A stretch of 64,000 bases of DNA from an uncultured Mycoplasmatota bacterium (GTDB lineage Bacteria; Bacillota_I; Bacilli_A; RF39; UBA660), in the NCBI GenBank assembly GCA_937944975.1, contig CALEBF010000012.1:103418-167417 (forward strand), in the 5' to 3' direction. Below, piece by piece: positions 13,404 to 14,437 of the stretch. The position numbers and the translations under genes are program-made. Under the pieces are notes generated by a model that worked only from the letters and a program-made list of their open reading frames with translations, did not search any database and was not told the DNA's origin. Position 1 is the stretch's first letter. Every line of letters begins with the position of its first letter.

Positions 13404-14381
13404 TTATGATAACTGTGTTACAGAAATAGTTGCAATCGTTGAAGAAGGACGACTACTCCACTCGAAGTATGCACCACCAACACCAAGGACAAATTCGCCT
13501 GTATTGTTCATAAGTGGTGATGTAGAAGGAACCGTAAATTCATATGAATAAATGTTTCCGCTTACCTTCCAACTTCCAGCAACATCTGTATAATCATAAG
13601 TACCTGATCCAGTACGTAATCCCAACTGTCCAGTCATCACAGTATTAAAAGTTCCATAATGTAATTCAACATCTACTCGATAACTATGATTTGCCCTAAA
13701 AACTCCAGTTGTTAATCTTCCCCCAATCATAGCAGCTGTACTACCAGAATTATTCACAAGATTTATTTTATCTGTTCCAGAAATAACGGCCTCGGTAGCA
13801 TTGCTAAATGCCTGAAAATCTAATTTTTTCGGATATGACGTTCCACTACTATCAGTTTGCTCATAATCAAGGGTCAGCGTCAACTGCTTATTTTGGCTTG
13901 GAAGACTTGTGGCGTCAATATCAAAATCAACTCTTACAATAAAAGTTTTCTCTTCTCCAGCCTCAATCACTTCACCTGTTACAATATCATCTGTAGAAAA
14001 TGTGATTGATGTTGGCTGTTTCTGATTCGCCGCATAAATACCATCGATCTTTTTTAACATAATTGGAAATGTACTATCATTTGCAACCACTACTCTATAT
14101 TCTACATAACTTCCTGGCGCTTCTAGTCCAACTTCAAAAGTTGCAGTTAGTTTGTTAGTGCCAACAGAAGCTTTAACTGTTTTTGCATTATGTAATACAT
14201 TTTCTGTAATGCTTTTAATATACACATTAAAATTACTTGTGATGTTACTTGTTCCAGTAATTCTCAAATTGCTTGCCAATAGAGCATATCCTATACTCAT
14301 AAATCCTACAAGGGTAAGAACACTTAGTAGAATCGTTCTTCTTCTCCGATTGCGATATCTCATTTTCTTCACTCCTGTCAT
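13404..14381 (-). CDS. secreted/membrane-anchored protein with conserved N-terminal IGY-anchor motif (paralog family with 34227..34922)
   Basis: Basic N-terminus (RNRRRR) then TM ...FMSIGYALLASNLRITGTSNI...; beta-rich Thr/Ser/Asn-rich ectodomain; AGGAG RBS. Confidence 0.55.
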   Translation of the reverse strand: MTGVKKMRYRNRRRRTILLSVLTLVGFMSIGYALLASNLRITGTSNITSNFNVYIKSITENVLHNAKTVKASVGTNKLTATFEVGLEAPGSYVEYRVVVANDSTFPIMLKKIDGIYAANQKQPTSITFSTDDIVTGEVIEAGEEKTFIVRVDFDIDATSLPSQNKQLTLTLDYEQTDSSGTSYPKKLDFQAFSNATEAVISGTDKINLVNNSGSTAAMIGGRLTTGVFRANHSYRVDVELHYGTFNTVMTGQLGLRTGSGTYDYTDVAGSWKVSGNIYSYEFTVPSTSPLMNNTGEFVLGVGGAYFEWSSRPSSTIATISVTQLS

Positions 14382-14408
14382 CTTCGAATTTTATATCTAG
14401 ACATATTC

Positions 14409-14437
14409 ATTATAATAAGATTTTTGCAACTTTGCAA
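14409..14437 (-). promoter_or_regulatory. consensus sigma-A promoter (TTGCAA-17-TATAAT) for 13404..14381 gene
   Basis: Minus strand: TTGCAA (14432-14437), 17-nt spacer, TATAAT (14409-14414), ~20 nt upstream of start. Confidence 0.5.

Follow-up and report, generated by a model that had tools for sequence, protein, structure and literature searches.

A probable TasA-like fibre or adhesin-display system behind two surface proteins of an uncultured human-gut bacterium

The haloarchaeal Tat-fimbriae (Tafi) and the DUF1102 clusters of Thermococcales and Archaeoglobus combine a dedicated signal peptidase I and a DUF5305 protein with two to three subunits of 150–200 residues and a tip protein of ~300 residues, and deletion of tafD blocks TafA processing in Haloarcula (PMC11821415). 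AbpX-like loci, of the TasA superfamily, encode a peptidase with ten helices and a DUF5305 protein that has been proposed as an accessory subunit of the peptidase (bioRxiv 10.64898/2026.01.04.697558). In the Tafi and AbpX systems, the dedicated peptidase removes the signal and the new N-terminus, disordered in the monomer, enters the next subunit (donor-strand complementation); SipW-BsaA of Clostridium perfringens works likewise (bioRxiv 10.1101/2024.11.04.621531). Here we analysed a 64-kb stretch of DNA from an uncultured human-gut bacterium (contig CALEBF010000012.1; the whole stretch is called the window below), in which two genes, gene 1 and gene 2, encode proteins with a common N-terminal motif. 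Comparison with relatives suggests that both proteins are probable components of a fibre or adhesin-display system like that of TasA. The two genes and their parts are as follows.

13404..14363, minus strand: gene 1, 319 residues from MRYRNRRRR, coordinates including the stop codon; a motif-bearing N-terminal module and a C-terminal beta domain
14283..14363, minus strand: predicted signal peptide of gene 1, residues 1–27, with basic MRYRNRRRR, a hydrophobic region and M22-S-I-G-Y-A27; putative cut after A27
14241..14300, minus strand: conserved motif of gene 1, residues 22–41, MSIGYALLASNLRITGTSNI
13854..14225, minus strand: immunoglobulin (Ig)-like beta-sandwich of gene 1, residues 47–170, with signatures PG..Y.V.V.N and L.Y.Q
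13407..13811, minus strand: extra C-terminal beta domain of gene 1, residues ~185–319, common to few relatives only
34227..34922, minus strand: gene 2, 231 residues; N-terminal signal and motif as in gene 1, ectodomain unrelated
34800..34850, minus strand: conserved motif of gene 2, residues 25–41, LTIGYSVLTTSLNFNIT

The motif reads FMSIGYALLASNLRIT in gene 1 and FLTIGYSVLTTSLNFN in gene 2, each time after a basic stretch and a hydrophobic segment, and a six-frame regular-expression scan of all 64 kb found it solely in these two open reading frames (ORFs). A preliminary description of the window had proposed a family of beta-rich surface proteins with a common N-terminal motif, and the motif is indeed present in both ORFs and conserved in orthologues. 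Treating both proteins as one family is right for the first ~45 residues, over which they are alike, and not for the ectodomains, which are unrelated; the gene 1 family profile matches gene 2 via the N-terminus alone (E = 2e-6 among 1,300 ORFs). Among homologues of gene 2, residues 1–42 are 94% identical and the rest 53%.

Pfam and NCBIfam searches with the proteins of genes 1 and 2 gave nothing meaningful, with no match to DUF11, CARDB, DUF7507 or choice-of-anchor D, and word-indexed homology searches returned only five to six close homologues per gene, all metagenomic and unnamed. The family became visible only through an exhaustive HMMER search with the gene 1 alignment, in which 3,081 of 1.84 billion representatives matched at E ≤ 1e-3, 1,097 of them at E ≤ 1e-10, the family being counted as clusters at 50% identity. 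These ~3,000 clusters are spread over uncultured Bacilli, Clostridia and Candidatus Saccharibacteria, so the signal is probably not lineage-specific, as had been suggested it might be. The family is uncurated: none of its members reaches a Pfam or NCBIfam threshold, the only name on its proteins is 'hypothetical protein [Bacilli bacterium]', and one database protein has a precomputed PF24346 call.

Of the 150 targets listed, 74–1,074 residues long, nearly all have the match (profile positions ~10–180) at their extreme N-terminus; the exceptions are a few fragments. Many family members are the module alone (~170 residues). The C-terminal parts of longer members are of adhesin type, with BspA leucine-rich repeats in 22 of 72 and also DUF6273, Listeria-Bacteroides repeats, fn3 and DUF285; no cell-wall anchor family was found among the Pfam and NCBIfam matches of these long members. 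Three relatives (P0014, P0015 and P0059) align with gene 1 over its full length, and the C-terminal domain of gene 1 has no relatives among the fetched loci described below. The mature modules are acidic, with a median isoelectric point (pI) of 4.18; the pI of gene 1 is 5.0.

A motif profile was built from 205 distinct N-termini. The family consensus is M-[SAGT]-[VI]-G-Y-A-x-[LF]-x-x-x-L-x-I-x-G-T, and with the tyrosine as position 0 the profile reads:

Position −4: M (70%)
Position −3: S, A, G or T (89%)
Position −2: V or I
Position −1: G (88%) or A
Position 0: Y (95%) or F
Position +1: A, S or G (100%)
Position +2: A, L, V or I
Position +3: L or F
Position +7: L (96%)
Position +9: I (89%)
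Position +11: G (93%)
Position +12: T (83%)

Mean pairwise identity across the wide family is 47% in the motif, 33% in the beta domain and 23% in the basic and hydrophobic regions. The motif is the best-conserved segment of the family, not a generic transmembrane composition that orthologues fail to conserve. It contains N-x-T sequons: both window genes have N-I-T, and the consensus has N-G-T as well as N-I-T. N-terminal 60-mers matched no signal-peptide model of NCBIfam at E ≤ 10, and literature searches for the motif strings and for Saccharibacteria with TasA or SipW found nothing relevant.

The full module of gene 1 comprises 175 residues, made up of the basic N-terminus, the hydrophobic stretch, the motif and the Ig-like sandwich, and its hydrophobic run through GYALLA is ~20 residues long. 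An AlphaFold2 model from 47 sequences (mean predicted local distance difference test, pLDDT, 84.5) has one continuous helix at residues 4–31 and an eight-strand sandwich at residues 47–170 (pLDDT > 90). In this monomer, residues 32–46 (LRITGTSNITSNF) are unstructured (pLDDT ~53–68) though highly conserved. The fold is a generic Ig-like sandwich; a search of the profile against PDB sequences returned only noise, such as Top7, and a fold search with a two-domain model was uninformative (template modelling score ~0.2). The preliminary description had proposed checking the ectodomains against hidden Markov models. Neither gene 1 nor gene 2 has a curated match, and relatives give sub-threshold matches only: of 47 members, 10–22 match DUF11, CARDB, DUF7507 and choice-of-anchor D (E ~1e-6 to 0.05 in single-module relatives), 6 match PF12389 (best 3.7e-4), 5 match NF046066 (best 1.7e-3) and 2 match TIGR04090.

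The decisive evidence comes from the genes that surround the module in relatives. A scan of GTDB genomes with the subfamily alignment yielded 28 loci, from uncultured Bacilli, Clostridia and Candidatus Saccharibacteria as well as two bins labelled Muribaculaceae; metagenome contigs for P0184 were added. Operons were counted over 20 distinct loci with a ~170-residue module gene (24 fetched, four being copies of one place). All 20 have the same gene order, in which the module is followed by a motif-only protein (in most loci), a peptidase, sometimes another module and finally a DUF5305 protein. Each locus encodes one to three subunits of 165–180 residues. The second gene in most loci encodes 270–390 residues, with the N-terminal motif and a different, often CBM_2-like, ectodomain; in the other loci this position is taken by another module gene or has no gene matching the profile. 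The peptidase has 323–402 residues, usually ~390, and in most loci a crude count by hydropathy gives it 7–9 hydrophobic segments. Its C-terminal domain passes TIGR02228, the archaeal/SipW-type signal peptidase I (84.9 and 81.4 bits, cut-off 51.85), and the last operon gene passes PF17231, that is, DUF5305 (72.6 and 94.8 bits, cut-off 29). The signal had been described as not obviously of the SipW/TasA type; given that single-module relatives adjoin a SipW/archaeal-type peptidase in 20 of 20 distinct loci and that the motif aligns with the TasA site, this was probably wrong, though TIGR04088 is unmatched.

The operon of module, peptidase and DUF5305 protein is also carried by metagenome-assembled genomes (MAGs) of Candidatus Saccharibacteria (loci L016–L019, L022 and L024), with A-Y-A replacing G-Y-A, which suggests horizontal spread between episymbionts and Bacillota. 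Separately, the second operon gene of one locus (L005, 10573..11463) begins ...RITYSFFNADF, nearer to the classical SipW-type signal T-x-A-x-F-x-D than to the GYA motif, so one peptidase may serve both signal variants.

A processing site, as had been suggested, is plausible. The motif holds two overlapping sites that fit the −3/−1 rule, [SAGT]-x-G↓Y and G-Y-A↓x (arrows mark the putative cut). Our preference is for G-Y-A↓A-(L/F), on the ground that it matches the TasA site position by position: both have an aromatic side chain at −2, Ala at −1 and, at +2, a side chain that is hydrophobic or aromatic. In this alignment, made by eye, G-Y-A↓A-(L/F)-S-Q of the family stands beside G-T-W-A↓A-F-N-D of the TasA precursor. 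The mature TasA N-terminus, AFNDIK, was verified, and the TasA sequence used in the comparison was verified against 8AUR.

The chances are slightly above even, in our estimate, that the conserved N-terminus of both proteins is a tag for export and processing, that a dedicated peptidase cuts it and that donor-strand fibre assembly follows, as in TasA, AbpX and Tafi. The parts of the tag would be the basic N-terminus, ~15 hydrophobic residues and the motif. The Sec system would export the tagged protein, which the hydrophobic segment would keep in the membrane until a SipW/archaeal-type signal peptidase with a DUF5305 partner cut it behind the last residue of G-Y-A, which is A27 in gene 1 and S30 in gene 2. 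The new N-terminus, A/L-L-x-x-x-L-x-I-x-G-T, would then enter the beta-sandwich of the neighbouring subunit as an amphipathic strand. Exposure of the LxIxGT stretch as a donor strand would fit its alternating hydrophobic pattern, its extreme conservation and its disorder in the monomer model. Gene 1, with strand, sandwich and extra C-terminal domain, would supply a subunit that polymerises or decorates the fibre; gene 2, with the strand only, might be a tip- or cap-type partner or simply another substrate of the same peptidase. Gene 2 resembles the motif-only proteins of relatives' operons. The family, its motif, the fold and, in relatives, the link to the operon are results of the present analysis; we infer the cleavage site, the polymerisation and the presence of a peptidase elsewhere in the genome.

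The relatives' loci are like the AbpX, Tafi and DUF1102 loci in their combination of a subunit, a tip-like motif-only protein, a multi-helix TIGR02228 peptidase and DUF5305. Two further points agree with AbpX: the mature subunits have an acidic pI, and the monomer model leaves the N-terminal extension without structure, which has also been reported of the AbpX donor strand. The family differs in several ways: neither its sequence nor its fold significantly matches AbpX, AbpA, thread or TasA; an invariant G-Y precedes the putative cut, unlike in AbpX-like loci; some copies of its module carry large adhesin domains; and its hosts are uncultured gut Bacilli, Clostridia and Saccharibacteria, whereas AbpX and Tafi occur in archaea, some Bacillota and Chloroflexota. 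With TasA, TapA and SipW of Bacillus subtilis, and with SipW, BsaA, BsaB and BsaC of C. perfringens, the family shares the use of one special signal on differing ectodomains together with one SipW-type peptidase, and a PGD...N.G strand motif is found in both TasA and the family. Its sandwich is, however, smaller than the TasA jelly roll, and the relatives' peptidase has a polytopic N-terminal domain of ~250 residues that is absent from SipW. The PG-x-x-x-Y-x-V-x-V-x-N-x-G pattern of the sandwich is that of DUF11, CARDB and choice-of-anchor D, to which the sub-threshold matches also point. Those domains are internal repeats without a fixed N-terminal signal or peptidase operon, though, and the matches here fall below curated cut-offs. 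The family is best filed as an uncurated variant of TasA-like dedicated-signal-peptidase fibre systems, unusual in that its N-terminal module is also found on many adhesins.

Several results weigh against processing and fibre assembly of the TasA type. The curated SipW-signal model TIGR04088 matched none of seven N-terminal segments at E ≤ 10. Models of TasA, camelysin and BsaA (PF12389, NF046066, TIGR04089 and TIGR04090) reached no curated threshold, gene 1 itself giving no match, and hhalign aligned the profile with TasA at 26% probability over 33 columns, taking in the PGD...N.G strands only. At position 2 of the putative donor strand, the family has L (62%) or F (32%), and the acidic residue that AbpX and TasA donor strands have at position 4 is absent, the family having Q, T or S there and E in 3%. 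The alternative cut, [SAGT]-x-G↓Y, fits the −3/−1 rule equally well. The sample of loci was biased toward single-module operons by the search patterns, which were drawn from a single-module subfamily; module paralogues of 455–468 residues in other MAGs are stand-alone genes, as are gene 1 and its closest relatives (the nearest being P0005). Unlike in AbpX and Tafi loci, the window genes have no peptidase nearby: regular-expression and phmmer searches found neither a SipW-type peptidase nor a DUF5305 gene within the 64-kb window.

The absence of such a peptidase from the window would also be expected if the tag were never cut. As an uncleaved signal anchor, it would hold the proteins in the membrane in type II orientation, with GY...LxIxGT as a juxtamembrane linker or first strand, and the products would be monomeric adhesins that form no fibre. 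The ~20-residue hydrophobic run through GYALLA and the continuous helix at residues 4–31 suit an anchor, and so do the long members (up to 1,074 residues), with their adhesin domains and no matched cell-wall anchor family. The near identity of the 42 N-terminal residues of gene 2 homologues extends over the hydrophobic part and is unusual for a discarded signal peptide. Yet all 20 distinct single-module loci have a dedicated signal peptidase beside the module gene, which is hard to explain without a cut; small residues occupy −3 and −1 of both overlapping sites in nearly all of the 205 sequences, and the hydrophobic region is the least conserved part of the wide family. We regard a permanent anchor as unlikely. 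It is also improbable, in our view, that the proteins have an ordinary Sec signal peptide, removed by the housekeeping signal peptidase, with the motif as the first strand of a DUF11/CARDB-like domain, the 5' end of gene 2 acquired by recombination, and no dedicated machinery or polymer in this organism. The generic Ig-like fold and the sub-threshold DUF11, CARDB, DUF7507 and choice-of-anchor D matches of relatives agree with such a history, as does the stand-alone position of gene 1, P0005 and many long paralogues. Against it, the motif is more conserved than the domain and, in the monomer model, lies unstructured outside the sandwich. Motif-only proteins with unrelated ectodomains recur in peptidase operons, which argues that the motif functions apart from the beta domain.

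The window itself offers a further candidate machinery in its type IV pilus or competence-like genes, at 4256..11651. An A24 prepilin peptidase that lies 4 kb from gene 1 could cut a prepilin-type (class III) signal, making the proteins pilin-like subunits of the neighbouring pilus system. The genes for A24 peptidase, T2SSF and T2SSE ATPase (7467..11651) are close to gene 1, and this proximity is kept in orthologous contigs; the family is also like type IV pilins in its conserved N-terminus, its widely varying C-terminal domains and its modular 'pilin plus adhesin' architectures. However, trmK and a YqfQ-like gene stand between gene 1 and the pilus genes, and the tag has no G at −1 before the hydrophobic segment and no E at +5; a short basic leader with a final G, followed by F/M-T/S-L-x-E, is absent from gene 1, gene 2 and the 205 relatives. 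The family lacks the G↓F-T-L-x-E site of pilins, its associated peptidase is of family S26B rather than A24, and the assembly principle differs. Canonical prepilin signals, G↓FSLME and G↓FTVVE, are present on other genes of the same window and differ from the motif, which the preliminary description had correctly judged not to be of prepilin type. With these as contrast, the sequence excludes a prepilin signal, and we give pilus membership next to no credence. The pilus genes and a nearby competence gene are:

4256..5926: large pilin-like protein with prepilin signal G↓FTVVE and an ALK/LTK-type glycine-rich domain (PF12810)
5942..7372: large pilin-like protein with prepilin signal G↓FSLME and an ALK/LTK-type glycine-rich domain (PF12810)
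7467..8858, plus strand: T2SSE ATPase
8921..9685, minus strand: A24 prepilin peptidase
9696..11651, minus strand: T2SSF protein, unusually long at 651 residues
19380..21452: ComEC-like competence protein (Competence and metallo-beta-lactamase domains), a few kb from the pilus genes

Gene 1 is a monocistronic unit with its own promoter, inserted between sigA and trmK and bounded by two terminators, and this placement is kept in related contigs. Its signals are:

14448..14480, minus strand: intrinsic terminator of sigA, a hairpin (14454..14480) followed by a U run, −9.4 kcal/mol; upstream of the gene 1 promoter
14409..14437, minus strand: sigma-70-type promoter of gene 1, with TTGCAA (14432..14437), a 17-nt spacer and TATAAT (14409..14414)
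14372..14376, minus strand: ribosome-binding site (RBS) AGGAG, 8 nt 5' of the ATG at 14363
14364..14381, minus strand: in-frame upstream ATG extension MTGVKK, probably untranslated; contains AGGAG
13370..13402, minus strand: terminator hairpin of gene 1, −10.6 kcal/mol, z = −4.5; bidirectional with a convergent CmpB-like gene

The gene had been placed at 13404..14381. A longer ORF with these coordinates does exist on the minus strand, and the start codon is likely at 14363 rather than 14381, because AGGAG, which had been rightly recognised as the RBS, lies inside the extension, because the NCBI record and one orthologue are called from MRYRN, and because both substitutions found in the six extension codons across orthologues are non-synonymous. 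The promoter had been called a textbook perfect consensus. TTGCAA-17-TATAAT is present and conserved, and its −10 box is perfect; the −35 box matches in 4 of 6 positions (10 of 12 in total), so the consensus is not perfect. Sites of this kind are not enriched in the window (9, against 8.3 expected in shuffled sequence). Despite this chance-level frequency, the promoter is probably real, because both hexamers and the 17-nt spacing, together with the RBS, are invariant in four orthologous intergenic regions (proteins 65–86% identical) in which the spacer and flanks vary. The stem of the sigA terminator has compensatory changes in orthologues, and gene 1 lies downstream of this hairpin, not upstream as had been stated.

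At the sigA-trmK site of two contigs from independent samples (L043, 10001..10956; L044, 2351..3306), the gene 1 orthologue is broken into two ORFs, one of 142 and one of 154 residues. It may have become a pseudogene, or a frameshift may serve to switch the gene on and off.

Gene 2 is followed on the same strand by two genes:

33533..34225, minus strand: family-2 glycosyltransferase, directly downstream of gene 2
31819..33528, minus strand: 569-residue multi-pass membrane protein

The order gene 2, glycosyltransferase and 569-residue membrane protein after smc is kept in related contigs (L001–L004; 8716..11131), and this conserved order suggests that gene 2 is linked to a surface glycosylation unit. 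The membrane protein has no Pfam or PDB match; among the fetched loci, only its syntenic orthologues are related to it, and the gene 2 ectodomain likewise has no relatives there except syntenic gene 2 orthologues. Downstream of the gene 2 operon lie three tandem paralogous membrane proteins on the minus strand (29457..30053, 30168..30734 and 31120..31773), each with a coiled-coil N-terminus, hydrophobic segments and a common ..TGY(C/F)V..DFN.. stretch; none matches Pfam.

A broader interpretation, which we offer tentatively and with clear doubt, is that uncultured gut Bacilli, Clostridia and Saccharibacteria use the GYA-tagged module as a general display device that needs no sortase. An 8–10-helix signal peptidase and DUF5305 would build a TasA-like fibre of ~170-residue subunits, and hundreds of unrelated adhesins (with BspA leucine-rich repeats, DUF6273, Listeria-Bacteroides repeats or the gene 1 C-terminal domain) would be attached via the same donor strand, motif-only proteins such as gene 2 serving as caps or initiators; no curated family recognises such a device.

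For the window alone, the result is modest: two stand-alone family genes, one with a well-conserved promoter. If processing and donor-strand assembly hold for the family, the multi-helix signal peptidase and its DUF5305 partner would gain a candidate substrate motif, and the export and assembly of a large group of 'hypothetical' surface proteins, from uncultured Bacilli of human and animal guts and from Saccharibacteria, would have a common explanation. The tag M-x-[VI]-G-Y-A...L-x-I-x-G-T could then be used to predict the surface and adhesin repertoire of these bacteria, and donor-strand fibres of the TasA type, so far studied in Bacillus, Clostridium and archaea, would reach these lineages.

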